Of a DNA stretch of 64,000 nucleotides, positions 6,899 to 30,779 are shown one piece after another. Positions within the stretch are counted from its first letter, which is position 1; every line of letters begins with the position of its first letter. Position numbers and translations under genes: made by a program. Source of the stretch: Candidatus Dormibacteria bacterium (lineage in GTDB: Bacteria > Chloroflexota > Dormibacteria > Aeolococcales > Bog-877); contig JBEKRL010000004.1 in assembly GCA_049518775.1 (NCBI GenBank), positions 4,968 through 68,967 on the forward strand, in the 5' to 3' direction. The notes under the pieces were generated by a model. It was given only the letters and a program-made list of their open reading frames with translations. It was not told the DNA's origin and did no database searches.

Positions 6899-7123
6899 TC
6901 TTCGCTGACGCAGGCTGCCTTCTGACTGGCGCCGGGTGGAACCCGCGCTGGACCGCGATCTCGGGCACCTTGAGGGGACCTCGTGCCGGAGGCAGCCCGG
7001 CCGCGGCTGCGAACTCGGCGCCCGCCACCCAGACTGCGGCGGCGGCCGCCAACCCGGCAGAGGTACCGGCGGTCGCTCAGCCGGCGAGGCGTCACCCCAT
7101 ACGGCACCCGCCCGGCTGGGACA

Positions 7124-8608
7124 TCAGCTCTCAACCCCCTCGATTTCGACGTCGGCTGGATGTCCGTAGAATTCCGACTTCCCGAATACCTTAGACAGCA
7201 CCACGACGACGGCAGCCAGCACCAGCGTGACCACGAAGGTCAAGATGGTCTGGGCCGTCAGCCCGTGCAAGGTCTCCACCCCAATCCAGATGAGGACCAG
7301 TGCCCCGCCTACCGGCAGCAGGAGCCCGGTCACGAAGGACACGACGCTGGTGAGCACCACGCGCCGAAGCATCCACGCTGCGGTCAGGCCGGTGAGTGCG
7401 TAGTACACGACGAACATCAACCCGATGCTGCTGACGAGGTTGGTAAGCACAGTGCCGATGGTTCCCGTCGAGGACCACAGCGAGAACAGGAACATGGCAA
7501 ACGAAGGAACTGACAGGATGATCATGGCTAGCCACGGAGTCTTCGTCCGGTTGTTCACGGCGGCGAATACCTTGGGCAGAACGCCATCGCGTCCCATGGA
7601 GAATGCGACCCGGCCGAAGGTGATTATCGTGGTCTGAATCCCGCCTATGAAACTTGAGCAGATCGCCAACGCCAGAATGTCGCCCCAGGGGTGGCCGGCA
7701 AGATGGGTTCCGACATCGGCGAGCCAGGTGCCGGAGTTGGCCCCCATCTGCTTCGGGGAGACCAGGGTCAGGTAGAACATCGAGAGAACGACGGAAGCGA
7801 GAAGGACGCCAACCAGGGCCCAGATCCCAGCCAGACCGGGGTTCCGGAACCGGTGAGTGGTCTCCTCGTTCACCACGACAGCCGTCTCCCAGCCGGAGTA
7901 CCAGAACACCGTGATCAGCAGCCCGGAGAGAAGACCGCCTGTCCCCCCAGCGCCCGCGATGGTGAACCATTGTGGGCTGGGAGCCTTGGCGCCGACGGCG
8001 TGGGTGGTGAGCCCGTGAACCATGGCCCAAACACCGAACAGGGTGAAGACCGCCAGCTCACAGCTGGTGAGGACCCACTGGAAGCGCGCTGAAATCCTGA
8101 TCCCGCTCACCACCAGAACAGTGATGGCAAGCAAGAACACGGTCCCCGTGATCATGACGATGAAGTGGTTGGAGGCGTACTTTGGGGAGAAGAGTGTGAG
8201 CAGCGTCGTCGAGGCCGGAATGATCGAGAAGGCGTTGGAGACGACGAAGGCGAGGATGATCAAAATCCCCACAAACGCCCCGAGATACGGGCTGATGATC
8301 CGACCGATCCAGGCGTAGGAGATCCCGACGTCCGGCCGCCACCGGTTCAGGTAGTAGAAGCCGAAGGCGATCCCGACGAGGGGAAGAAAGCCCACGAACA
8401 GGGCGAACAGCGCTCCGTACCCGGAGGCGCCGGCAAGTGACGCCAGGACCCCGGCCAGGCTGACCCCCGGCGCTGCGCTGGCGAACCCGAGGACGATGCC
8501 GGAGGTGGCGCCGATGGCATTCTCCCGAAGAGGGCGGTGGCGGGGCTGCTGGGCCTGGAACTCACCCCCGGGGCCGACCTCTGCTCCCTTGCTGTCCGAG
8601 ACGCCCAT
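7124..8608 (-). CDS. APC family amino acid/polyamine permease
   Basis: 12-TM hydrophobic profile with APC-like segments; ATG at 8608 with GGAGG RBS; upstream ORF extension judged non-coding. Confidence 0.8.
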   Translation of the reverse strand: MGVSDSKGAEVGPGGEFQAQQPRHRPLRENAIGATSGIVLGFASAAPGVSLAGVLASLAGASGYGALFALFVGFLPLVGIAFGFYYLNRWRPDVGISYAWIGRIISPYLGAFVGILIILAFVVSNAFSIIPASTTLLTLFSPKYASNHFIVMITGTVFLLAITVLVVSGIRISARFQWVLTSCELAVFTLFGVWAMVHGLTTHAVGAKAPSPQWFTIAGAGGTGGLLSGLLITVFWYSGWETAVVVNEETTHRFRNPGLAGIWALVGVLLASVVLSMFYLTLVSPKQMGANSGTWLADVGTHLAGHPWGDILALAICSSFIGGIQTTIITFGRVAFSMGRDGVLPKVFAAVNNRTKTPWLAMIILSVPSFAMFLFSLWSSTGTIGTVLTNLVSSIGLMFVVYYALTGLTAAWMLRRVVLTSVVSFVTGLLLPVGGALVLIWIGVETLHGLTAQTILTFVVTLVLAAVVVVLSKVFGKSEFYGHPADVEIEGVES

Positions 8609-9090
8609 GCTTCTTCCTCCCCGAGCGGTCGGCGAAATGGGAGCCATCATAGCCCCGGATGTCTGGGCAGTCAATAGACATCAGTTGACAGACAACAGCC
8701 TCTCTGAGTAGAGTCCCCCCCATGCCGTCGTCGTGGGTCAGGTCTGACTTCGGCTGGAACTGGAGAGCGGCGGGCGTCCGAGAGTCGGCCGGCGCGGGCC
8801 AAGGAGCCGCGCCGCCGCCCACGGGCGGTGCTGCCGCCGCACTCGACCGGTTGCGGAGACCGAGAGCCGAGGGACAGGGGCCACCACCTGCCGTGGCCTC
8901 TTGAGTCAGCGCGGCGCTGGGTGTCCCAGGCCGGTACGCCCGTCGCGGCGAGAAGAGCCGGGGTGCAGAACTGGGGCCGGACCGCGGCCCGGCCACGCCG
9001 GCCGCCCTGGGCCCGAGCCCAGGTGCCCCGACGGTACCGTCAAGACGCTCTCGTGATTTGGCAGTGCGACATAGACTGGAGGCATAGGAC

Positions 9091-20385: not shown

Positions 20386-21474
20386 ATGGCACCCATGAAC
20401 AGGGACTCACGGGTGCTCTTGGTCATTGCCGACAGCTCCCGGAGCGGCGGGCCCGAGCATGTTCTGACCCTGGCCAGAGAGCTCTCAGCTGCCGGGTGGG
20501 CAGCACTGGTGGCCTGTCCGCCGGGCGAGCTCGTCGACCGCTGCGGCGGCGCGGGGATCGCCGTTGCCACCATCTCGGTGGGAGGCAGGAGCTGGGCTAC
20601 GGCTCCGATCCAGCTCCGCCAGCTGGCCCGGCAGTGGCGCGCGTCCGTCGTCCACAGCCACGGGCTGAGGGCTGGGGCCCTCCTCCGTCGGGCCCGGGCT
20701 CAGGCCCCCATGATCCACACCCACCACCTCGACGGATGGTTCGCCTCCGGTGCGGTCAGGCTCATGGTCCACCGCCACGAACTGCGCGCCCTGGGTCGGG
20801 CATCCAAGCTGCAGATCGCGGTCTCCAATGCGGTCGCCGCGTTCCTGATCGACGAGGTGGGGACCGACTCGCGCCGGGTCCGGGTGGTACCCAACGGCAT
20901 CGACCCGCTTCCATTGGTGCCCCGCGCCGCGCCGTCCGGACACCGCGTCGGCGTGCTGGCCAGCCTCACCCTCTCCAAGGGGATCGACACCGCGATTCTG
21001 GCGCTGGCCACCCCGGCCGGCCAGACCCTCTCCCTCTTCGTGGGGGGGACCGGGCCTGAGCTCTCGAGCCTGGCGGACCTCGCCTACACCGTCGGGGTAG
21101 CGGACCGCGTCAACTTCGTGGGGGAGGTTCGGGACCGGGAGAGGTTCTTCTCTGGCTGCGATCTGGCCTGGGTCCCATCGAGGGCCGAGCCGTTCGGCCT
21201 TTCCGCCTGCGAGGCGATGAGTTCAGGGTTGCCGGTGGTGGCCAGCCGGGTGGGCGGCCTGACGGAGATCCTGGATCCACCCCATGCCGGGCTGGTTGTC
21301 GGGGCCGGCAATCCCGCCGCCCTAGCCGCAGTCAGCTTGGCCCTGCTGGGCGACCCCGATCGGTACGCGGCCCTGAGCGCCGCCGGGGCGGAGCGCGCTC
21401 GCCAGCGCTTCTCGGCCGCTCGGATGGCGGCTCTCACCAGGGGGGTATACCGCGAGGTGATGGGCGTCCAATAG
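20386..21474 (+). CDS. glycosyltransferase family 4 (GT-B, EX7E motif)
   Basis: C-terminal [20 protein letters not shown] (E-X7-E) and GT4 architecture; divergent from metG. Confidence 0.8.
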
Positions 21475-21536
21475 AACAGCTCTGGGCCGGGGCGGCTGGA
21501 GCAGGGTGAGAATCACGGGCTCGGTCCAGGGCCGTG

Positions 21537-21570
21537 CCTCCCACTGCAACTTTGTGGTTGCAGTGGGAGG
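21537..21570. terminator. perfect 14-bp inverted repeat hairpin (CCTCCCACTGCAAC-tttgtg-GTTGCAGTGGGAGG); intrinsic-terminator-like or operator
   Basis: read directly; 60 bp downstream of GT4 stop and upstream of SRPBCC start; no U-tract (common for high-GC actinobacterial terminators). Confidence 0.4.
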
Positions 21571-21617
21571 CGAAAACGTGCCCTCTTTGGGCTGCAACTC
21601 TCCCCAGTCGCAGGGGC

Positions 21618-22070
21618 GTGCCTACGAGCGACGACCGCATTGAGCAGCAGGTCATCATCAATGCCAGCGCGGATCGGGTCTGGGACCTTTTGAGCCGGCC
21701 CGGCTGGTGGGCGCCGACCGAGGCCGACGCTCCGGTCGATCGAACGCCAGGCCACCAAGTCGTGCGGGAGAGCAAGGATTGGGGGCGATTCGCGGTCGAG
21801 GTTGTCGACATCAAGCCTCTGACCTATGTCGCCTTCCGGTGGGCGAGCCAGTTCTCGGGTGAGGAGCTCGGCTCAGGCAGGGCGACCCTGGTCGAGTTCC
21901 AGGTCGAGCCCACCAGCGGCGGGATCAGGGTGGCTGTGTTGGAAAGTGGGTTCGCGCCGTTGGATGCGCCGGAATCGGTACGCCGGGCGGCCCTCGACGG
22001 CAACGCCGGCGGGTGGGCCGAGGAGTTGCGCGGGCTCCGGGAGCGGGCCGAGCGGTTCCCGAGCCCCTGA
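21618..22070 (+). CDS. SRPBCC family protein (AHSA1/activator-of-Hsp90-ATPase-homolog-like)
   Basis: IEQQVIINASADRVWDLL...GWW motif pattern of AHSA1/SRPBCC; GTG 21618 chosen downstream of the hairpin (ORF open from 21534). Confidence 0.6.
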   Translation: MPTSDDRIEQQVIINASADRVWDLLSRPGWWAPTEADAPVDRTPGHQVVRESKDWGRFAVEVVDIKPLTYVAFRWASQFSGEELGSGRATLVEFQVEPTSGGIRVAVLESGFAPLDAPESVRRAALDGNAGGWAEELRGLRERAERFPSP

Positions 22071-22327
22071 GCCCGCACGCCGAAGCCGAGGTCGCTCAGG
22101 TCTTTGTGGCTCTCGCCGATCCCACTCGGCGCCGGCTGCCGCGCGGACACTGGAGAGGTGATGCCTTAGGACATGGTCACCTCGTTTCCGGGCCGGCGAT
22201 GACGGCGTCCAGCTCGAACTGAGCAAGGGCGAACAACGTGCAGCAGGCAGAGGCCGACGGGCGACTCAGCCCGCCCGGCTCCAGCTCAGCCGGCCGGCTG
22301 CGCTGACAACCCCTTCGCGGGCTCGAG

Positions 22328-22822
22328 CTAGGTGTCGGGGTCCGGGGGTCCCAGGCCGCTGCCAACGAAGGCACTCAGAACATCCACGAGGATGTCCCTC
22401 TGGGATGCATCCAGCTCCTGCCCGAGACGCCTCAGGGAGCGTCTCCGCCAGCCGCGATACACCTCCAGGGCGCGGGCCGCCCGTGGGGTTGGCGCCAGCC
22501 AGACGGTGCGCCGGTCCTGGGGATCGTCCCGGCGCTCAACCAGCCCCTGGCGGATCATCCGGTTGGCCATGGCGGTCGCCGCCGCTCCGGTGATCCCCAT
22601 CGACGCCGCAAACCGCCGCATGGGCATGCCTTCCGGAGGCAGGCAGCCAACCGCTTCGAGCTGGCGCCAGGTGACCGATCCGAGCTGGCGGCTGACATTG
22701 TGCGGAAGGGGCCTGTCCAGGACCGACCGGAGCTGCGGCTGGAGCTTCAGCATCCGTTCCACGAAGTCGTCAACTGGTGCAGTGTCCCTATCCCCAGGCC
22801 CATCGCCCGGCTGAAGGTTCAC
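22328..22822 (-). CDS. MarR family transcriptional regulator
   Basis: MarR wHTH (MRRFAASMGITGAAATAMANRMIRQGLVER); GTG start. Confidence 0.7.
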   Translation of the reverse strand: MNLQPGDGPGDRDTAPVDDFVERMLKLQPQLRSVLDRPLPHNVSRQLGSVTWRQLEAVGCLPPEGMPMRRFAASMGITGAAATAMANRMIRQGLVERRDDPQDRRTVWLAPTPRAARALEVYRGWRRRSLRRLGQELDASQRDILVDVLSAFVGSGLGPPDPDT

Positions 22823-23326: not shown

Positions 23327-23929
23327 CTACTCCTTGGAGGACGGGTAGTAGGGGTTGGTGCCCTCGGCGTGATCGGTGGTATCGACCACCTCGACGATCT
23401 CCTCGAAGCGCTCCAGGATGGCGGTCCGCACTCCCTGGGACAAGGTGGTCTCGGCGAGGCCGCAGCCCTGGCAGCCGCCCCCCATCTGCACGTAGGCGAC
23501 GCCATCGGCGATGTCGAGCAGACCGATGTAGCCGCCGTGGCCGGCCACCGCCGGGTTGATCTCCTGATCGAGCATGCGCTGGACCGCCTGGGCCAGGGGA
23601 TCCTCATCGGGGTCGTAACCGGTCTCCAGACTGAGCGCTCCGGAGATCGGGTCGGCCTCCACGCGGGAGCCGACCACATGGCGGGTGATGACCCGAGGAG
23701 CCACGAAGAAGATGTCGGGTGCCCCCTCCACCAGCACCTCCTCCGGCTTCAGCCCGCCCGCCTCAACCAGATCGAAGTTGAAGGTCAGCCGCTCGCCCTG
23801 GAGTAACCCCGGGGTCACCGAGACCCATGCCTCGGGGTGCCCCTGGCGCGCTCGGAAGCTCCGGATCCGGGCCGCGGCCCGCTCACTCAGCTGAAGCCGG
23901 GGCACGTCCCCCCTGGTCTTGGTCTCCAC
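23327..23929 (-). CDS. NfuA-like Fe-S cluster biogenesis protein (degenerate A-type carrier domain + Nfu domain)
   Basis: C-terminal Nfu motif GGGCQGCGLAETTL; N-terminal HesB/IscA-like fold lacking Cys; GTG start 23929 inferred (ORF open to 24091). Confidence 0.75.
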   Translation of the reverse strand: METKTRGDVPRLQLSERAAARIRSFRARQGHPEAWVSVTPGLLQGERLTFNFDLVEAGGLKPEEVLVEGAPDIFFVAPRVITRHVVGSRVEADPISGALSLETGYDPDEDPLAQAVQRMLDQEINPAVAGHGGYIGLLDIADGVAYVQMGGGCQGCGLAETTLSQGVRTAILERFEEIVEVVDTTDHAEGTNPYYPSSKE

Positions 23930-24120
23930 TTGTCCCAGTCTGACGCGACGGGCTGGAGAGTGCCTGTGGCGCGCCGCTCGGTGGGCGGGGGATCCGCGAT
24001 CCAGCCCGGTCATCGATGCGGTCGAGGCAGCGGCCGTCCGCGGAGGCCTGAGGCCGCTTGTCGTCGCCTGGCAGGACTCGACCCCGCCCACCGGGCGGGG
24101 GCTGGAGGGACTAGCCGGGC

Positions 24121-24975
24121 GTGACCGTCACTTCGTCCGCCGGCCGGCCGGCCGACGCGTCCGCGCCCCGCCAGGCGAAGGCCGAGCTCCTCGACCAGCT
24201 GACGCTGGGGGTGTTGGAGCTCACGTCATCCGCGGCCTGGGCCCGGTGGCTGCAGGTGAGCCGCCGCTTCCACCGCTACAGCTTCCCGAACCAGATCCTG
24301 ATCCTGAGCCAGCGCCCAGATGCCACCTGGGTGGCCGGGTATCGGGCCTGGGTCCGGCTGGGCCGGCAGGTGCGCCAGGGGGAGAGGGCGATTCGAATCC
24401 TGGCTCCGTGCCTGGTCGTCCCGGAACCGGCGGAGGGAGAGGGGCCGCCGTCCCCCACCCTGCTCGGGTTCCGAGTTGCCCACGTGTTCGACCTGGCCCA
24501 GACCGCCGGAGAGGAGCTTCCCCAGCCGGTGCGGACCCTCACCGGGCCGGGTTCGCCGGACCAGCTCGGCAAGCTGGCCCGGCACGCCGTGGATCTGGGG
24601 TTCGACCTTCAGTTCAAGGCTCTCCGGGGCGCCAGGCACGGGGACTGCTCCCACGCCCTGCGGCGGATCCGGGTCAGCAGCGAGCTGGCCCCGGCCCACC
24701 AGCTGAAGACGCTGGCCCACGAACTGGCCCATGCGATCCTCCACGGGCCCGAGTTCCAGGGCTCCAGGGCACTGGCGGAGCTGGAGGCCGAGAGCGTCGC
24801 CTATGTGGTCTGCCAGGCGTTGGGGGTGGAGAGCCGAGACTACAGCTTCGGCTACCTGGCCACCTGGTCGGGAGGCGGTCCGGAGGCGGCACGGCTGGTG
24901 ATCGCCGCCGGAGGGCGAATACTGAAGGCCGCCTCCTCGATCCTGGATGCGAAGGACGACCAACCGGCACCCTGA
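24121..24975 (+). CDS. ArdC-like antirestriction protein: N-terminal ssDNA-binding domain (DUF1738) + C-terminal zincin metallopeptidase (HEXXH)
   Basis: N-terminal QILILSQRPDATWVAGYRAWVRLGRQVRQGERAIRILAP matches ArdC-N pattern; C-terminal HELAHAILH HEXXH motif. Confidence 0.7.
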   Translation: MTVTSSAGRPADASAPRQAKAELLDQLTLGVLELTSSAAWARWLQVSRRFHRYSFPNQILILSQRPDATWVAGYRAWVRLGRQVRQGERAIRILAPCLVVPEPAEGEGPPSPTLLGFRVAHVFDLAQTAGEELPQPVRTLTGPGSPDQLGKLARHAVDLGFDLQFKALRGARHGDCSHALRRIRVSSELAPAHQLKTLAHELAHAILHGPEFQGSRALAELEAESVAYVVCQALGVESRDYSFGYLATWSGGGPEAARLVIAAGGRILKAASSILDAKDDQPAP

Positions 24976-25030
24976 GGGGACCCAAGCCCCCGTCGCGGCC
25001 ACTCCAGCGCGGGCGCGCTCCGACCCGGCC

Positions 25031-25059
25031 TTGACAAAATGAGCCGCCACTCATAGGGT
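25031..25059 (+). promoter_or_regulatory. candidate sigma70/SigA-type promoter for XRE gene (TTGACA - 17 nt - TAGGGT)
   Basis: perfect -35 TTGACA at 25031-25036, 17-nt spacer, TAnnnT -10 at 25054-25059, 28 nt upstream of GTG 25088. Confidence 0.3.
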
Positions 25060-25087
25060 CGGAGGCGGAATCAGGGGGTGATCAGGG

Positions 25088-25414
25088 GTGTCCAGCAGCA
25101 ACTTCGACGTCTTGTTCCCGGAGGTGGAGGTTGAGGTCTCCGACCCAGGCCTTGCTGCCTTCCGCGACCAGGATGCCATGCGGGTCAAGTCACGCCTCAT
25201 CGAGCTCGTCCTGGTGCGGCGCTTGGAGCTGGGGCTGACCCAGGAGCAGCTGTCACAGCGCTCGGGCGTGGCCCAGACGGAGATCAGCCGGATAGAGCGG
25301 GGCCGAAAGACCCCCAACCTGGACACCTACGCGCGGCTGGCCGCGGCGCTCAACTTGGATCTGATCGCGAGGAGACCACAACGGGTGGCCAGCCGGCGGC
25401 GGCCGCGCGTCTGA
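25088..25414 (+). CDS. XRE family helix-turn-helix transcriptional regulator
   Basis: HTH_3/XRE motif LGLTQEQLSQRSGVAQTEISRIERGRKTPNLDTYARLAAAL. Confidence 0.7.
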   Translation: MSSSNFDVLFPEVEVEVSDPGLAAFRDQDAMRVKSRLIELVLVRRLELGLTQEQLSQRSGVAQTEISRIERGRKTPNLDTYARLAAALNLDLIARRPQRVASRRRPRV

Positions 25415-25810
25415 GGCCGGTCGCCGCTCTCACACGAGACTTGAGCATCCTCAGCTCGGTGCCAGCGCCTGCGAACAACCCGCGCCGGCGCGCATTCCCA
25501 GCGCGTTCCTCGTCGCGATGCGTCGGGCGACCGTCGCCGCCGGGATGAGGCAAACCGCAGCGGCTGGCGCGACCATCCGTCCGGGTGGTCTCCACGCCCT
25601 CACCGAGAGTGAGGAGGATCCTCATGCCGATCGGCCGTCTCCGCCGGGACGACGGAGTCGGGACCACGACGCCATTCCCAGGGGGTCTGGTTCAGGGGCC
25701 GGCAGCTGCGGTCAGGGCAGCCCGCCTCTTGGCGGCCGGCACCATCGCTTGGACAAGGCTCAGGCTACAGTTTGGCTCTGAAGCAGCGCGAAGGGCGAGA
25801 CGGCAACCCG

Positions 25811-26359
25811 ATGAAGGCGCTCCATGTTGCCGATGGCAGCGAATGGCGCGCGTGGTTGGTGAGCAACGCCAAGACCTCCGAGGGGGTCTGGCTGCTCTAC
25901 TACAAGAAGAGTTCGGGAAAGCAGCGGATTCCCTATGAGGACGCCCTCGACGAAGCTCTCTGCTTCGGCTGGATTGACAGCAAGATCAGAAAGGTCGACG
26001 AAGCCAGCTACGCGCAGCGGTTCACGCCCCGCAAACCCAGCAGTCGCTGGTCAGCCTCGAACGTTCGGCGCATGGAGAGACTGATCCGAGACGGGAGGAT
26101 GACCCAGGCCGGGATGGATGCCTTCGCGTCTCACCAGACCCGGAGGGCCCCACCCCTGCCAACCCAGCTCCCGCGAGGCCAGGAGGATAGATTTAAGGCG
26201 CAGACTGCGGCGTGGGGCAACTTCGAGCGCCTCTCTCCCTCGTACCGGCGCCTGGCCATCGCCTGGGTCGCCGGCGCCAAGAAGGAAGAGACTCAGATCA
26301 AACGCCTCAATCAGCTCGTCGAGTCCTCAGCAGCCAACAAACGCCTCGAGTTCATGTAG
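25811..26359 (+). CDS. YdeI/OmpD-associated (OmdA/DUF1905-like) family protein
   Basis: W..WL..N......WLLYYKK......IPYEDALDEALCFGWIDS..RK.D......RFTPRK..S.WS..N pattern; ATG 25811; local GC (~60%) lower than flanks. Confidence 0.6.
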   Translation: MKALHVADGSEWRAWLVSNAKTSEGVWLLYYKKSSGKQRIPYEDALDEALCFGWIDSKIRKVDEASYAQRFTPRKPSSRWSASNVRRMERLIRDGRMTQAGMDAFASHQTRRAPPLPTQLPRGQEDRFKAQTAAWGNFERLSPSYRRLAIAWVAGAKKEETQIKRLNQLVESSAANKRLEFM

Positions 26360-26444
26360 CCGATCTCACGCTGGGTCCCCTTGGAATCCGGCGGCAGGGG
26401 GCCGGGGCTCAGTCACTCCAGGGGGCCGGGCTCAGCGGTCGATC

Positions 26445-27539
26445 TCAGCTCTGGAGCAGACGGCGAACCTCGCGGGCGATCTCCAGGTCCTCTCGGCTCT
26501 CTATGACCATGGTCGAGGCCGGCGCGTCCGCCGCACCGATCTGCCGGTCCCCTATCCCGGATCGGTTGCCCTCGGGGTCGATGTGGATGCCCAGAAAGCC
26601 CAGACCGTCGCAGCACTCGCCCCGGATTCGCGGGGAATTCTCCCCCACCCCGCCGGCGAACACCAGAGCGTCGAGCCCGCCCATGGCCGAGGCCATGGCT
26701 GCCACCCCGGCGCGCAGGCGGTGCAGATAGACGCCGATCGCCAGAGCGGCGGCGGGGTCACCGGAATCGCGCCTGCTCAGAAGCACCCGGATGTCGGCGC
26801 TGCCGCCCAGGCCGAGCAGCCCGGATCGGTACTCAAGGGTTGCCGCGAGTTCGGCGGGAGCCATCCCCACGTGCTCCTCGAGCCAGAGCACCAGGCCGGG
26901 ATCGACGTTGCCACATCGCGTCGCCATCACCAGGCCTTCGAGTGGCGTGAACCCCATCGTGGTGTCGACGGAACGGCCATCTGCGACCGCACACAGGGAA
27001 GCTCCGGCCCCAAGGTGGCAGGTGACCAGGCGAAGCCCCTTCGCCGGGCGCCCGAGGATGGCGGCAGCCTGTCGGGAGAGGTAGGCGTGTGATAGCCCGT
27101 GAAAGCCGTAGCGGCGCAGATTCCAGCGCTCGCGCCACGCCCGGGGCAGGGCATAAGAGGCCGCCGCGTCGGGCATGGTGACGTGAAAGGCAGTGTCGAA
27201 GCAGGCCACCGCCGGCACTCCGGGGAGGGCCGCCTTGGCGGCATCGACACCGGCAATCGACTTCGGCTGATGGAGGGGAGCGAGTTCCGTCAGGGCCCTC
27301 AGCCGCCGCTCGACCTCCGGCCCGAGCCGCACTGCAGCGGTGAACTCGGTGCCGCCGTGCACGATCCGGTGTCCGACCGCGTCGATGGGACCCAGACCGC
27401 GGATCTCCTCCTCCACCGCCGAGAGGGCGGCCGCTTCATCGAACGCCGCCAGGTCCTTGGCCGCGGAGACGGTGTCGTCCGTCTCCACTACTCGAAGCTT
27501 GAGGCTGCTCGATCCGGCGTTGACAACTAGGACACGCAC
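26445..27539 (-). CDS. ackA: acetate kinase
   Basis: N-terminal VLVVNAGSSSLK, acetate/propionate kinase motifs; GTG 27539 with GGAGAG RBS (ORF open to 27710). Confidence 0.85.
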   Translation of the reverse strand: MRVLVVNAGSSSLKLRVVETDDTVSAAKDLAAFDEAAALSAVEEEIRGLGPIDAVGHRIVHGGTEFTAAVRLGPEVERRLRALTELAPLHQPKSIAGVDAAKAALPGVPAVACFDTAFHVTMPDAAASYALPRAWRERWNLRRYGFHGLSHAYLSRQAAAILGRPAKGLRLVTCHLGAGASLCAVADGRSVDTTMGFTPLEGLVMATRCGNVDPGLVLWLEEHVGMAPAELAATLEYRSGLLGLGGSADIRVLLSRRDSGDPAAALAIGVYLHRLRAGVAAMASAMGGLDALVFAGGVGENSPRIRGECCDGLGFLGIHIDPEGNRSGIGDRQIGAADAPASTMVIESREDLEIAREVRRLLQS

Positions 27540-28215
27540 TGTCTCTCCGCGGCCGGCCCCTTCCCGGCGCGAAAGTCGAGAGGGCCTACACCCTGCTCGC
27601 GAAAGTGGAGGCGGCAGTCGAGCCCCCCGTCGATAGTCGTCTGACGGAGATGACCCTGCCCGGCGAGCGACCTCGGCCTGCCACCGGCGGCGTCGATGAT
27701 GAGGTCGCAACGGTCGAGGTCGTTCGCTAGCACTGGGTCAAACCGAGCGTGGTGGTGCATTCTTCCCGGCAACCGCTGACCTGGGGGTTGAGCCGTCGCC
27801 GCCTCGAATTGGGCCGACGAGGAGGGAATGGTAGTGCATGCCGGCGCATGACGGGTCTCCGGGGGGCACCGCTTCCGGTTACCTGGGCGCCCTGCCTGCG
27901 GTGAGGGAATGATTCTCACCGCGGAGGTAGGAGTCGATCGGGAGTCGGTGCCCGCTTGCCCGGGGCACGCCGCCGAGGCCTGGGCGTGCACCTCGTGGGG
28001 CCATGGGAGCGTCACCACCGCACGTCTGAAGGCCAGGCCGCAGCCGCCCGTTGTCCCCGCTGATCTGGGTAATCTTGCCCCGCGTGTCCGCCAGGTCCGT
28101 CCGAGGATTCCAGCCGCTGGCGGGAGTCGACGAGGAACCAGGGCCTCACCACCGCCTCCGGGACAATCCCCAAGCCGCGCATCACAAGGTGTTCAACGCT
28201 GGAGGTCAGGTGAGC

Positions 28216-28252
28216 TGGGCAGCGCCATTAGGCCCGGCCCAACGGCGCTGCC
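28216..28252 (-). terminator. GC-rich hairpin immediately downstream of NCS1 permease gene (terminator-like, no U-tract)
   Basis: GGGCAGCGCC - 17 nt loop - GGCGCTGCCC perfect 10-bp stem, flanked by second complementary pair AGGTGA/TCACCT; 45 bp from stop codon at 28300. Confidence 0.35.
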
Positions 28253-28299
28253 CGCAACGATCAGGATTCTCGCGTCACCTCAGCTTGTTGGTATTGCCG

Positions 28300-29757
28300 C
28301 TATGTCTCCGAGGCGCGGGTGGCGGCTGCTTCCTTCCGCACGCTGCCCACGGAGAGGACGAAGTAGACAAGGCCGCCGACGAGAATGCCGACCACCCAGC
28401 TGAAGTCAGCACCTCCGGTAGCCTTGGAAAGCGGGCCCGTAAAGGAGGGCACGTAGAAGGCGGCATCGATCCACAGCATCGCGGCCACCATTCCCAGCGC
28501 CTGAGCGACAAGCGCCTTCCAGTTCACACCGCCGTTCCGCCAGTACAGTCCGCCAATCCTCGACACCAGCGAGCCGGTGTCGTAGCGGCCACGGCGGAGC
28601 AGGTAGTCGACCATCAAGATCCCGAACCAGGGTCCGAGCCAGACCACGATGTAGTCCAGGAAGCCCGACAGGTCGGTGTAGAACTTGCCCTTGAAGATCA
28701 CCAGGGCGGTGACGGCCCCGGCCACGATGGTGTCGATGACGACCGCTCCCCAGCGCTTGATCGGCAGCCCCAAGGCCTGAAGCGTCACCGACGACGAGTA
28801 CATGTCGATCGAGTTGATGGCGAACAGCTGGGGGAGGACCAGGATGAGGAAGGGCCAGAAGAACCAACTCGCGAACGAGGATGGCACGCCGGTCACAGCG
28901 GTCACGCTCGGGCTCACAATGAAAGCCAGCGCTCCCAGAATCTCCAGCAGGATCGCGGGGATGGCGCCGCCCAGGGTGGCGGCCCAGAACGTCCTGGCCT
29001 TGGGTGTCGAGCGGGGCAGGTAGCGCGAGTAGTCGGCGGCATTCTCGGTCCAGCCCAGGCCACCAGCCGAGACGATCAGCACTACGGCAGTGGTCCACAG
29101 CGCCCACGAGCCTGACTGATGGAAGTGGGAAAGGTTGACATGGGGGATGACCAGCACCGCCATGATCACGAAGAGCACGATGAAGACGTAGGACAGGTAG
29201 CGCAGGAGCCTGGTGATCATCGCGTGGCCGAGGAACGGCACTATGAACTGAATCAGGACGGCCGCGACTATCAGGATGGCCTTGAGCCCGGTCCCGACCC
29301 CGATGCCGCCCTTGACGAACATCGCCACGGCCACCAGCACGACAAGCACGATGCCCTCGATCTCAAAGCCCACCTGGGTGAGCCAGTTGAAGAACGAGAC
29401 CACTCGGTTGCCGTTGATCCCGAAGGGGGCTCTGGAGACCATGAAGGCCGTGGTGCCGGTCTCTGGCCCGGGCAGGCTGGCCCAGCCCAGGAATGAGTAG
29501 AAGAGGTTGCCAACCAGGATGGCGAGCACCGCCTGGCCGAATGAGAGTCCGAATGAAATCGCCAGAGCTCCGTAGACCAGGAACTCAACGTTCCAAATCG
29601 CCCCGGCCCAGAGCCAGAACAGCCCTGAGGGCTTCATCTTCCTGTCCGCGTCGGGGATCAGATCGATGCCGCGCTGCTCGACCTTGAGCGCCGAGTACTC
29701 CTCCGTCGCCGGGACGGGCGCGCCCTGCCCTACATTGGTCGGATAGTTCCTTGCCAA
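28300..29757 (-). CDS. NCS1 family nucleobase:cation symporter (cytosine/purine/uracil/allantoin permease-like)
   Basis: 12-TM NCS1 profile (ALKVEQRGIDLIPDADRK...LFWLWAGA..); TTG 29757 preceded by AGGGGGGA RBS; upstream part of ORF (to 30168) is Pro/Arg-rich and non-coding. Confidence 0.8.
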   Translation of the reverse strand: MARNYPTNVGQGAPVPATEEYSALKVEQRGIDLIPDADRKMKPSGLFWLWAGAIWNVEFLVYGALAISFGLSFGQAVLAILVGNLFYSFLGWASLPGPETGTTAFMVSRAPFGINGNRVVSFFNWLTQVGFEIEGIVLVVLVAVAMFVKGGIGVGTGLKAILIVAAVLIQFIVPFLGHAMITRLLRYLSYVFIVLFVIMAVLVIPHVNLSHFHQSGSWALWTTAVVLIVSAGGLGWTENAADYSRYLPRSTPKARTFWAATLGGAIPAILLEILGALAFIVSPSVTAVTGVPSSFASWFFWPFLILVLPQLFAINSIDMYSSSVTLQALGLPIKRWGAVVIDTIVAGAVTALVIFKGKFYTDLSGFLDYIVVWLGPWFGILMVDYLLRRGRYDTGSLVSRIGGLYWRNGGVNWKALVAQALGMVAAMLWIDAAFYVPSFTGPLSKATGGADFSWVVGILVGGLVYFVLSVGSVRKEAAATRASET

Positions 29758-30779
29758 GGCATCCCCCCTGTGATCTGGGCCGTTGGACTCGCCGGAAGTT
29801 CCCGCCACTATAAGGCTAGCCGGCGGTTCCCGGCTGGGGTCGGTTGGACCCCAGCCGGGGCGGGGTTGGGAGCTGCCCCCGGTCAGCGGCGGGGTAGCCG
29901 CGAACAGGCGTCTGCGGCGGTAGCAGCAGCGGGTGAAGCTGGCCGCCTGGACCCGGGTCAATGGCGTCCGCCCTAAGACCGCCGTTCGTGGGGGGAAGGC
30001 ACGCTCCCGGCGCCGGCACGCACGGTCGGTCCGCGGCCCATCCTGGTGGAGACCGGGCCGCCCGGAGTCCCCGGGGCCGTCGCGATCTGCGCCCGCGCCT
30101 CCTCCCCCGACCGACCGGCAGATATCGAGTGCCAGGTGGGTCGGCTGGCGGAATCGGCGGCCTCGCACTCGTTACCGGTGAGCCGGACCTTCGCCGAGGT
30201 GGGCTCGGGGTTGAACGGATCTCGCCCCAGGCTGCGGCGGCTGCTGCCGGATCGGACGGTCAGGACGATCGTAACCGAGCATCTCACCAGCCTTCGCGCC
30301 CGGCTCTACGGGAGGTGCTCAGCCTGCACCAGAGCGGCTCGAGCCCTGGGGGCCGACGCGCCGGCCGGCCGGTGGAGGTCGCCTGAATGGCGAGAGCCCG
30401 CCGCGCGTGCGATATACGCCGACGGGGCGGATGACGGACCGGGAGCTCTCCCGGCAGCTCGCGGTGAAGCACGAACCGGGGTCACCCCAAGGCTCGCGCC
30501 CGGGGCCGGGGTCCTCGATCACGGCAGAGCTCCTGTCCCGATGGGCCCGGTGATCAGGAATGGTGGCCGCTCCCCCACCGTCGCCGGGCCGCGTCGGCGT
30601 CCCCGGGCCAGAGCGATCGAGGGCCGATCGCGTCTCCAGGATCAAGAGCCCGAGCTGCGCCTGGTGAGAGCCGACCCGGTTCCCGAGGAGCCTGAAGCAC
30701 CTGGCCTCCACCCCAAGTGGCATCGTCGGTCTTCCGCGTTCCGGCCTCACGCATCACTGCGTCGATGGTGGCCGGCCCT

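Follow-up and report, generated by a model that had tools for sequence, protein, structure and literature searches.

A chromosomal, syntenic ArdC-like gene of Candidatus Dormibacterota with a predicted protease domain, and the lineage-specific slot beside it

The subject of this report is a gene for an ArdC-like protein, together with its immediate surroundings, in a 64,000-nucleotide stretch of DNA (hereafter the window) from the metagenome-derived genome of a Candidatus Dormibacterota bacterium. Positions 24,121 to 26,359 of the window hold three genes, namely the ArdC-like zincin gene, a gene for an XRE-family helix-turn-helix (HTH) regulator, and a YdeI-family gene. All three calls had been made from the bare sequence in an earlier reading (the original prediction), and each was confirmed by Pfam. 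As described, the finding is an ordinary one, since the genes are already annotated in public metagenome-assembled genomes (MAGs) as ArdC-like, XRE and YdeI. The named matches of the ArdC-like protein at 57–72% identity are proteins of Dormibacterota MAGs, where they are annotated as “ArdC-like ssDNA-binding domain-containing protein”, and a 32-kb metagenome contig from the Joint Genome Institute (JGI) is 100% identical to the window locus. The three genes had been taken for a lower-GC islet left behind by a mobile element. On comparison with relatives this island dissolves, and one small probable gene gain, that of YdeI, remains. The account that we favor, held with somewhat more confidence than doubt, is that the locus is an ordinary stretch of a Candidatus Dormibacterota chromosome with no islet, and that its ArdC-like gene belongs to a vertically inherited, monophyletic and purifying-selected chromosomal clade, an ancient exaptation that now serves as a host protease dependent on single-stranded DNA (ssDNA). 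ArdC-family proteins are regarded as weapons of mobile elements, yet here they form a chromosomal, syntenic and constrained clade in an uncultured phylum.

The backbone of the locus appears to run, in order, through genes for an MFS transporter, DnaJ, methionyl-tRNA synthetase (MetRS), a glycosyltransferase, MarR, NifU, an ATP-grasp protein (missing from the window), the ArdC-like protein and, further on, acetate kinase (ackA). The coordinates of the features are collected in Table 1.

Table 1. Features of the locus. Positions refer to the window, except in the last five rows, where they refer to the related locus that is named.
Feature	Position	Strand	Basis
NifU-like gene, left backbone neighbor	23327..23929	-	Pfam NifU, 1e-18
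Deletion junction, 97 bp in place of a ~1.2-kb ATP-grasp (L-amino-acid-ligase-type) gene	23964..24060	.	blastn against L169
ArdC-family protein, ArdC-N + M78-type HExxH gluzincin, 284 aa	24121..24975	+	Pfam, profile, fold
HELAH zinc-binding/catalytic motif, residues 200–204 (H200, E201, H204)	24718..24732	+	Alignment
Glutamate helix AELEAES, residues 219–225 (E220, E222, E224)	24775–24795	+	Alignment
Putative XRE promoter, TTGACA, 17 nt, TAGGGT	25031..25059	+	Cross-lineage alignment
Palindrome ATGAG-N6-CTCAT in promoter spacer, probable autoregulatory operator	25039–25054		
XRE-family HTH regulator, 108 aa	25088..25414	+	Pfam HTH_3 (5e-15), HTH_37
Lineage-specific variable segment, XRE stop to ackA: spacer + YdeI, GC 0.660	25417..26406	.	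Alignment with L165, L169
YdeI/OmdA-family gene, 182 aa from probable ATG	25811..26359	+	Pfam OmdA, 1.4e-14
Acetate kinase (ackA), right backbone neighbor	26445..27710	-	Pfam Acetate_kinase, 2e-113
Gp49 + XRE pair, L099	3266–3950		
Gp49 + XRE pair, L017	1266–1954		
Gp49 + XRE pair, L061	7439–8161		
Gp49 + XRE pair, L096	7586–8687		
Gp49 + XRE pair, L172	237–1009		

The ArdC-like gene starts with GTG, 11 nt downstream of a GGAGGG Shine-Dalgarno sequence, and the N-termini of homologues align with its product from the first residues. Pfam places both halves of the protein above threshold, with ArdcN (PF08401) at E 1.2e-7 and 32.4 bits against a cutoff of 22.6, and Peptidase_M78 (PF06114) at E 2.3e-7 and 31.1 bits against a cutoff of 22. 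In the ArdC-N half, the hhsxxQ-type motif FDLAQT is invariant along with conserved W, Y, S, N and Q residues. In an alignment of 25 homologues (A1), the HELAH motif and the glutamate helix are invariant or nearly so and align with the HExxH and Glu-helix of ArdC from the IncW plasmid R388. Both elements are likewise invariant in 36/36 proteins of the two chromosomal clades described below and in ~96% of the other family members. One copy looks different: in P0111, a genome with a 2.5-Mb contig, the ArdC-like protein diverges and stops shortly before the HExxH position, and it may be a frameshifted copy.

The profile built from A1 was run against the PDB with hmmsearch and matched R388 ArdC (6i89/6sna) at E 3.3e-7 over residues 74–289 of 297, with both domains collinear. 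An AlphaFold2 model of the protein (predicted local distance difference test score, pLDDT, 81.5) gave the same structure as the top PDB match in Foldseek, with a probability of 1.0, an E-value of 1e-8 and 287 aligned columns that cover both domains. PprI bound to ssDNA (8sln) and IrrE follow in the Foldseek results, with selecase and Spartan (6mdx, E 0.38) far behind, and both IrrE and PprI are also found among the profile matches. Judged by sequence and model together, the protein is a genuine, distant, full-length member of the ArdC family, with a protease half that scores as M78. No model in PADLOC or NCBIfam matches the ArdC-like or the YdeI protein.

R388 ArdC (6I89/6SNA; PMC7213743) is the best PDB match of the window protein by both profile and fold, and the two are alike in length (284 aa in the window, 297 aa in R388) and in their collinear two-domain architecture. 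Identity is ~20%. They differ in that the C-terminal domain of the window protein scores as Pfam Peptidase_M78, and in that the chromosomal clades have invariant residues of their own (D175, C176, R182, R184 and C231). The settings differ as well, since the R388 gene lies in the leading region of a plasmid, whereas the window gene is chromosomal, has a conserved housekeeping neighborhood and is vertically inherited. Thus the window protein carries the ArdC-N domain, the HExxH motif with its Glu-helix and the full-length collinear homology that mark the ArdC family, but not the family's carriage on mobile elements.

That carriage is otherwise the rule. An ArdC-N domain joined to a zincin peptidase is a classic mobile-element architecture (PMC6222260), and the family is large, with 12,291 clusters at 50% identity found at E ≤0.001 and 1,540 at ≤1e-30. 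By tblastn, members occur on 1934 plasmids (833 conjugative and 711 mobilizable), with ≤41% identity to the window protein, and a few are found in phages. One relative lies on an actinomycete-type integrative element with an integrase, an excisionase-type HTH protein, FtsK/SpoIIIE and a single-stranded DNA-binding protein (SSB). Relatives at 36–53% identity adjoin genes for SSB (17 loci), VirB4/TraG-like ATPases and ParB-like proteins. The original prediction had called the family typical of conjugative elements, and these counts bear it out. More broadly, the ArdC-like proteins of Gram-positive and actinobacterial plasmids, actinomycete integrative and conjugative elements (AICEs) and phages belong to the same family as the window protein, at 35–53% identity over the full length. 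They are accompanied by SSB, FtsK/SpoIIIE, VirB4/TraG-like, ParB-like and integrase genes, whereas the neighbors in the window clade are NifU, ATP-grasp and ackA.

Dormibacterota loci for comparison were drawn from GTDB representative genomes and metagenome contigs. At 53–88% identity, the ArdC-like gene stands in the same place each time, preceded by an ATP-grasp gene of the L-amino-acid-ligase type on the same strand and, before that, a divergent NifU-like gene; MarR and a GT4 glycosyltransferase come still further to the left. NifU on the opposite strand, followed by ATP-grasp and ArdC-like genes on the forward strand, recur as a set in no fewer than 12 independent loci. On a 2.39-Mb contig (66% identity), the common backbone reaches as far as MetRS, DnaJ and MFS, matching 15–21.5 kb of the window. 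The NifU-like gene itself keeps 68–80% identity and its synteny across the Dormibacterota loci; its product is 200 aa long in relatives, and the mechanical open reading frame (ORF) in the window extends to 24091. On the right, homology with the relatives L165 and L166 on the ackA side covers 26407–27783.

A neighbor-joining tree was built with 121 family members drawn from 164 loci, and in it all syntenic Dormibacterota loci form one clade. Divergence at synonymous sites (dS) tells the same story gene by gene. Between the window and the related locus L169, dS is 0.28 for the ArdC-like gene, 0.35 for XRE and 0.24 for NifU; between the window and L165, the respective values are 0.88, 0.86 and 0.65. 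Ratios of nonsynonymous to synonymous divergence (dN/dS) are 0.16–0.34 across the genes compared, and 0.16–0.26 for the ArdC-like gene and XRE. Since dS is alike for ArdC-like, XRE and NifU genes and dN/dS is low, the pattern is one of vertical descent under purifying selection, without decay. As the clade is monophyletic, vertical and constrained while the family otherwise resides on plasmids and integrative and conjugative elements (ICEs), the ArdC-like gene would go back to a protein of mobile elements that was exapted long ago. The “domesticated” alternative that the original prediction also offered fits this gene.

The nearest clade in the tree consists of ~22 proteins from Acidimicrobiales with ArdC-N and M78 domains (loci L011–L044). 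Their neighbors are likewise housekeeping genes (MFS, pyrophosphatase, TetR and polyphosphate kinase), and no mobility family is found among the best 25 Pfam or PHROG families of each search. The two chromosomal clades share D175, C176, R182, R184, C231 and G244, positions that are variable in the mobile clades. The point worth noting is that an ArdC-family protease has become fixed in the chromosomes of Dormibacterota, and probably in those of Acidimicrobiales.

Several observations weigh against the account favored here. The Pfam match to ArdC-N is modest and partial (model positions 35–96 of 123). TM-scores to ArdC are low, at 0.35–0.39, probably because the orientation of the two domains differs, and the fold argument therefore rests on the Foldseek probability and the collinear profile alignment. 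The tree was built by neighbor-joining without support values and from simple gene calls, and vertical inheritance was tested within the retrieved Dormibacterota loci only. In addition, L012 represents a second Dormibacteria copy of the gene, whose surroundings are different and resemble those of a phage or element. Finally, no neighboring gene points to DNA metabolism, as NifU, the ATP-grasp ligase and ackA are all metabolic.

The window departs from its relatives immediately to the left of the ArdC-like gene. In the other syntenic relatives, an ATP-grasp gene separates NifU from the ArdC-like gene. In blastn against L169, alignment ends at 23963 and restarts at 24061, with 1197 bp in between in L169. 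The 97-bp junction sequence of the window is unrelated to ATP-grasp and hairpin-rich, and no ATP-grasp remnant was found in the window by tblastn. On the evidence of these alignments, the ATP-grasp gene has been deleted in the lineage of the window, with the result that the ArdC-like gene directly follows the NifU-proximal region. Since the ATP-grasp gene is gone from this lineage, the ArdC-like gene does not appear to depend on it. An inverted repeat of 17 nt (23974–23990 and 24082–24098, 94% complementary) straddles the junction. It was considered as a possible repeated element and set aside, having no further copy elsewhere and a fold z-score of just -2.9. As a separate case, in the Dormibacterota MAG locus L026 (5284–6195), the position of ATP-grasp directly upstream of the ArdC-like gene is taken by a transposase gene of the insertion sequence (IS) type, and ackA is rearranged to that side.

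Composition bears directly on the idea that the three genes form a decayed or streamlined mobile-element remnant, that is, a lower-GC islet with anti-restriction, regulator and YdeI genes. A drop in GC to roughly 60% over 1–1.5 kb between flanks of ~72% had been reported, which proves to be overstated: the minimum within the finding is 0.661 over 1 kb and 0.668 over 1.5 kb, and the 2-kb flanks stand at 0.705 and 0.693. Over shorter spans the minima are 0.603 (300 bp, at 25741) and 0.625 (600 bp). With a GC of 0.685, the finding as a whole lies below the window mean of 0.699, at the 26th percentile among equal-sized windows; the standard deviation of GC for 600-bp windows across the 64 kb is 0.030. 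Scored against 51 window genes, the ArdC-like gene has a GC of 0.717 (z +0.5), a GC at third codon positions (GC3) of 0.887 (z +0.6) and a value like the codon adaptation index (CAI-like) of z +0.8; for XRE, z is +0.5 for GC3 and +0.1 for the CAI-like value. In contrast, the YdeI gene has a GC of 0.626 (z -2.4), a GC3 of 0.80 (z -1.5) and a CAI-like z of -1.4. Tetranucleotide usage, which had been proposed as a check, reveals no significantly deviant segment, as a fraction of 0.18, 0.51 and 0.43 of windows, respectively, deviate as much or more. Hence the GC dip is confined to the YdeI gene; the ArdC-like gene and XRE, with a combined GC of 0.706, are compositionally native.

The remnant explanation does have some points in its favor. 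Elsewhere, plasmids or ICEs carry the family in overwhelming measure, the YdeI segment is both lower in GC and lineage-specific, IS fragments occur in the same slot of L169 and L170, and an IS adjoins the ArdC-like gene in L026. Against these stand the native GC, GC3, codon and tetranucleotide usage of ArdC-like and XRE genes, backbone synteny that holds down to 53% identity, and co-divergence with NifU under purifying selection, which is not the course expected of a decaying remnant. No mobility gene, and no integrase, was found within ~10 kb on either side of the ArdC-like gene, and no tRNA gene in the 64-kb window. The flanks of the finding and of its variable segment yielded only short, chance-level direct or inverted repeat matches, so a search for att sites came to nothing convincing. 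No Rfam family matched in the window at gathering threshold. Synteny, which was to decide the matter, is conserved for the ArdC-like gene throughout the Dormibacterota relatives that were compared and for XRE in the three closest lineages, and fails in 25417–26406, which is lineage-specific. As the ArdC-like gene is both syntenic and compositionally native, the three genes do not form an islet. The features that define a genomic island are absent from 24121–25414 and partly present in 25417–26406 only, in the form of lineage specificity and the low GC of YdeI. Synteny thus largely refutes the remnant explanation, which we consider very improbable.

If the gene is a resident of the chromosome, the question becomes what its product does there. 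Homology, fold, conserved catalytic residues, synteny, co-divergence with neighbors, selection, and conservation of promoter and operator are shown for the locus; our preferred reading of the protein, that of an ssDNA-dependent host protease, goes beyond them. On the model of R388 ArdC, PprI/IrrE and CapP, the ArdC-N domain would bind ssDNA arising on DNA damage, replication stress or DNA uptake, and the bound ssDNA would position or activate the intact HExxH/Glu-helix peptidase for the cleavage of a protein target. ArdC binds ssDNA, and its metalloprotease domain is structurally close to those of Spartan and IrrE (PMC7213743). PprI (PMC10904395) and CapP (PMC13228613) are activated by ssDNA. 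As a broad reading it ranks above four narrower explanations, which follow in the order of cleavage of the adjacent XRE protein, proteolysis of DNA-protein crosslinks, retained anti-restriction and the mobile remnant.

Among the known systems nearest to it are PprI/IrrE-DdrO of Deinococcus and CapP-CapH, which regulate defense operons. They likewise feature an M78-type HExxH peptidase, ssDNA binding is predicted for the window protein as well, and an XRE gene lies next door. In PprI and CapP, which lack ArdC-N, ssDNA sits in the groove that separates the peptidase from a GAF domain (PMC13228613), whereas the window protease is without a GAF or HTH domain; the topology of the XRE protein also differs, and the pairing is not conserved. 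A cysteine switch as in CapP was looked for and rejected, because no cysteine lies between the HExxH motif and the Glu helix, with C176 and C231 both outside that loop. If the window protein is indeed an ssDNA-dependent host protease, the M78 proteases activated by ssDNA would come in a third architecture beside those of PprI and CapP, with ArdC-N in place of the GAF domain. Eukaryotes have recruited ArdC-N into XPC/Rad4, and such a protease would be the bacterial counterpart.

One specific form of this idea is that protease and XRE regulator form an ssDNA-triggered protease-repressor pair of the ImmA/ImmR, PprI-DdrO or CapP-CapH type, in which the protease would cleave the adjacent XRE protein and so derepress its regulon. 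Cleavage of XRE repressors by ssDNA-activated M78 peptidases is established (PMC10904395, PMC13228613), and at this locus a true M78 match adjoins an XRE gene, the two being kept in three lineages with equal dS and a dN/dS of ~0.2. ImmA/ImmR pairs (COG2856-XRE, as in ICEBs1 and prophages) likewise have an M78 peptidase beside an XRE gene, but the window locus is not on a mobile element, and both gene order and XRE architecture differ. The XRE gene follows the ArdC-like gene in the three closely related lineages only, with XRE identities of 99%, 88% and 77–81%, and is missing beside the orthologue in the other syntenic Dormibacterota loci (L001–L010 and L178). In an iterative search of all 165 loci, an XRE gene of the same type adjoins the ArdC-like gene in 7/135 loci family-wide, six of which represent the sub-clade of the window itself and the seventh a marginal match at E 7e-3.

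The architecture of the XRE protein tells against pairing as well. It consists of a 43-aa N-terminal extension, an HTH at residues 44–92 and a 16-aa basic tail, and of the PDB structures it best matches the HigA antitoxin 6af3, in which the HTH is placed alike. Such a C-terminal, HigA-like HTH is opposite to the layout of DdrO, ImmR and CapH, which have an N-terminal HTH and a cleavable C-terminal dimerization domain. Thus the locus has the M78 peptidase of a protease-repressor module, but neither the conserved pairing nor an N-terminal-HTH repressor. PADLOC and NCBIfam return generic HTH matches only for the XRE protein, and capH is one of the weak PADLOC matches, a point that speaks for the pair, as does the conservation of the XRE operator. 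Only 11 clusters share ≥55% identity with the window XRE protein. Its closest outside relatives pair with a Gp49 toxin or precede Dcm/Vsr genes and have no M78 neighbors: a 55%-identical relative directly follows a Gp49 toxin gene, and relatives at 57–73% identity precede Dcm/Vsr defense genes. The tie between XRE and protease is one of adjacency alone, and the ImmA/ImmR-type resemblance noted in the original prediction is accordingly weak. Direct cleavage of the XRE protein is, in our estimation, an unlikely role for the ssDNA-dependent host protease.

The XRE gene seems instead to have a life of its own. The 112-bp gap between it and the ArdC-like gene contains a putative promoter only, with no toxin gene of the Gp49/HigB-like kind. 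The promoter/palindrome block is invariant across the three lineages, whereas divergence or indels are seen in the intergenic DNA around it. A consensus promoter and terminator scan of 23.3–26.7 kb called nothing; it misses this promoter, whose -10 element is non-canonical. With a promoter of its own, XRE forms no operon with the protease, and the 64-kb window holds no second copy of the palindrome, which would have indicated a regulon. HigA antitoxins and the controller (C) proteins of restriction-modification systems share the N-terminal extension with HTH and the palindrome within their own promoter. The window XRE differs from them in being solo and chromosomally fixed, with no adjacent toxin or restriction-modification gene, and therefore does not constitute a HigBA pair. 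It is a solo regulator of the HigA/controller type that is probably autoregulated, most likely by repression of its own promoter through the palindrome. Such a regulator, complete with promoter and operator, would have become fixed directly downstream of the ArdC-like gene in one sub-lineage. As its closest relative outside Dormibacterota is a Gp49-paired antitoxin, it may be an orphaned antitoxin.

Related XRE genes turn up in other settings. Gp49 (HigB-like) and XRE pairs are found just downstream of mobile ArdC-like genes (Table 1), and pairs so placed in four loci rank with the nearest outside relatives of the window XRE. In L168 and L173, XRE relatives head defense-type clusters with Vsr, Dcm methylase, HATPase, HEPN_Swt1 and DrmE_C-like genes.

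Two further roles can be proposed for a chromosomal ArdC-like protein. The first is that of a DNA-protein crosslink protease in the manner of Spartan/SprT, which would be recruited to ssDNA-dsDNA junctions and degrade proteins covalently trapped on host DNA. The two-module logic of a DNA-binding module and a gluzincin is the same, the protease domain of ArdC is structurally closest to Spartan and IrrE (PMC7213743), and a chromosomal, vertical, constrained gene suits a housekeeping role in repair. The structural match to Spartan is weak, however; Spartan has a third histidine as zinc ligand, whereas the glutamate helix is retained in the window protein. Repair genes are absent from the neighborhood, and no experimental precedent for a crosslink protease in the ArdC family was found in the literature searched. 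We regard this role as improbable. The second is that the host retained plasmid ArdC activity as such, with the protein shielding ssDNA from the cell's own nucleases during DNA uptake or for restriction alleviation. The full-length homology to R388 ArdC, whose antirestriction acts in the recipient cell (PMC7213743), is in keeping with it, but a long-constrained chromosomal gene would gain no obvious benefit from disabling host restriction, and the neighborhood has no restriction-modification or competence genes. A retained anti-restriction factor is accordingly a distinctly improbable explanation.

Returning to the host protease, its boldest version can be put forward only tentatively. Here, a captured plasmid ArdC would now be a core gene of Dormibacterota and act as an ssDNA-sensing protease for the host, either as a damage-signal transducer of new architecture or as a bacterial crosslink protease. 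With the same reserve, the housekeeping sister clade in Acidimicrobiales, which has the signature residues in common (GDC, R182, R184 and C231), may be included.

The remaining gene of the finding has a different history. Homology to L165 and L169 (87% identical) ends exactly at the XRE stop codon (25415/25416), and homology with L165 restarts at 26407 on the ackA side. The segment in between has a GC percentile of 0.08. In L165 and L166 the slot contains cytochrome b and further genes, including one of 325 aa, over 3.2 kb; in L169 and L170 it holds a 63-aa ORF and IS-type HTH fragments. The slot therefore appears to turn over between lineages, with YdeI as its current occupant in the window, and this spacer-plus-YdeI segment of ~1 kb is the only part of the finding that behaves like a recent, ordinary gene gain.

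The YdeI ORF as listed begins at 25772, whereas JGI calls a protein of 182 aa. Its best non-self matches, at 68–70% identity, lie on contigs of 57.7% GC, and the named ones derive from Acidobacteriota (Terriglobia or Acidoferrales), with none from Dormibacterota. Neither repeats nor mobility genes were found in its surroundings. Most plausibly, then, YdeI is a partly ameliorated horizontal acquisition from an Acidobacteriota-like donor. The spacer that precedes it (25415–25810, 396 bp) has a GC of 0.706, no recognizable gene and no homology to the matching region of L165 or L169; a weak bias in one frame resembling third-position GC (0.756) suggests that it might be a pseudogene remnant. In the spacer between the convergent YdeI and ackA genes, a 12-nt exact direct repeat, CAGGGGGCCGGG, occurs in two copies 24 bp apart (26395–26430).

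The glycosyltransferase and MarR genes flank a second variable slot (21467–22486 in the window, 272–3941 in L165). It holds one SRPBCC/AHSA1 gene in the window, and DinB_2, an ECF-type sigma factor and small ORFs in L165. As to GC, the window has seven regions with a 600-bp GC ≤0.64, and the dip at YdeI is among them. Low-GC stretches by this measure include 7011–8750, 28101–29850 and five other regions. The lowest GC in the window (0.57–0.60) occurs at ~7.1–7.4 kb, and the stretch at 28.1–29.85 kb corresponds to a cytosine/purine permease gene.

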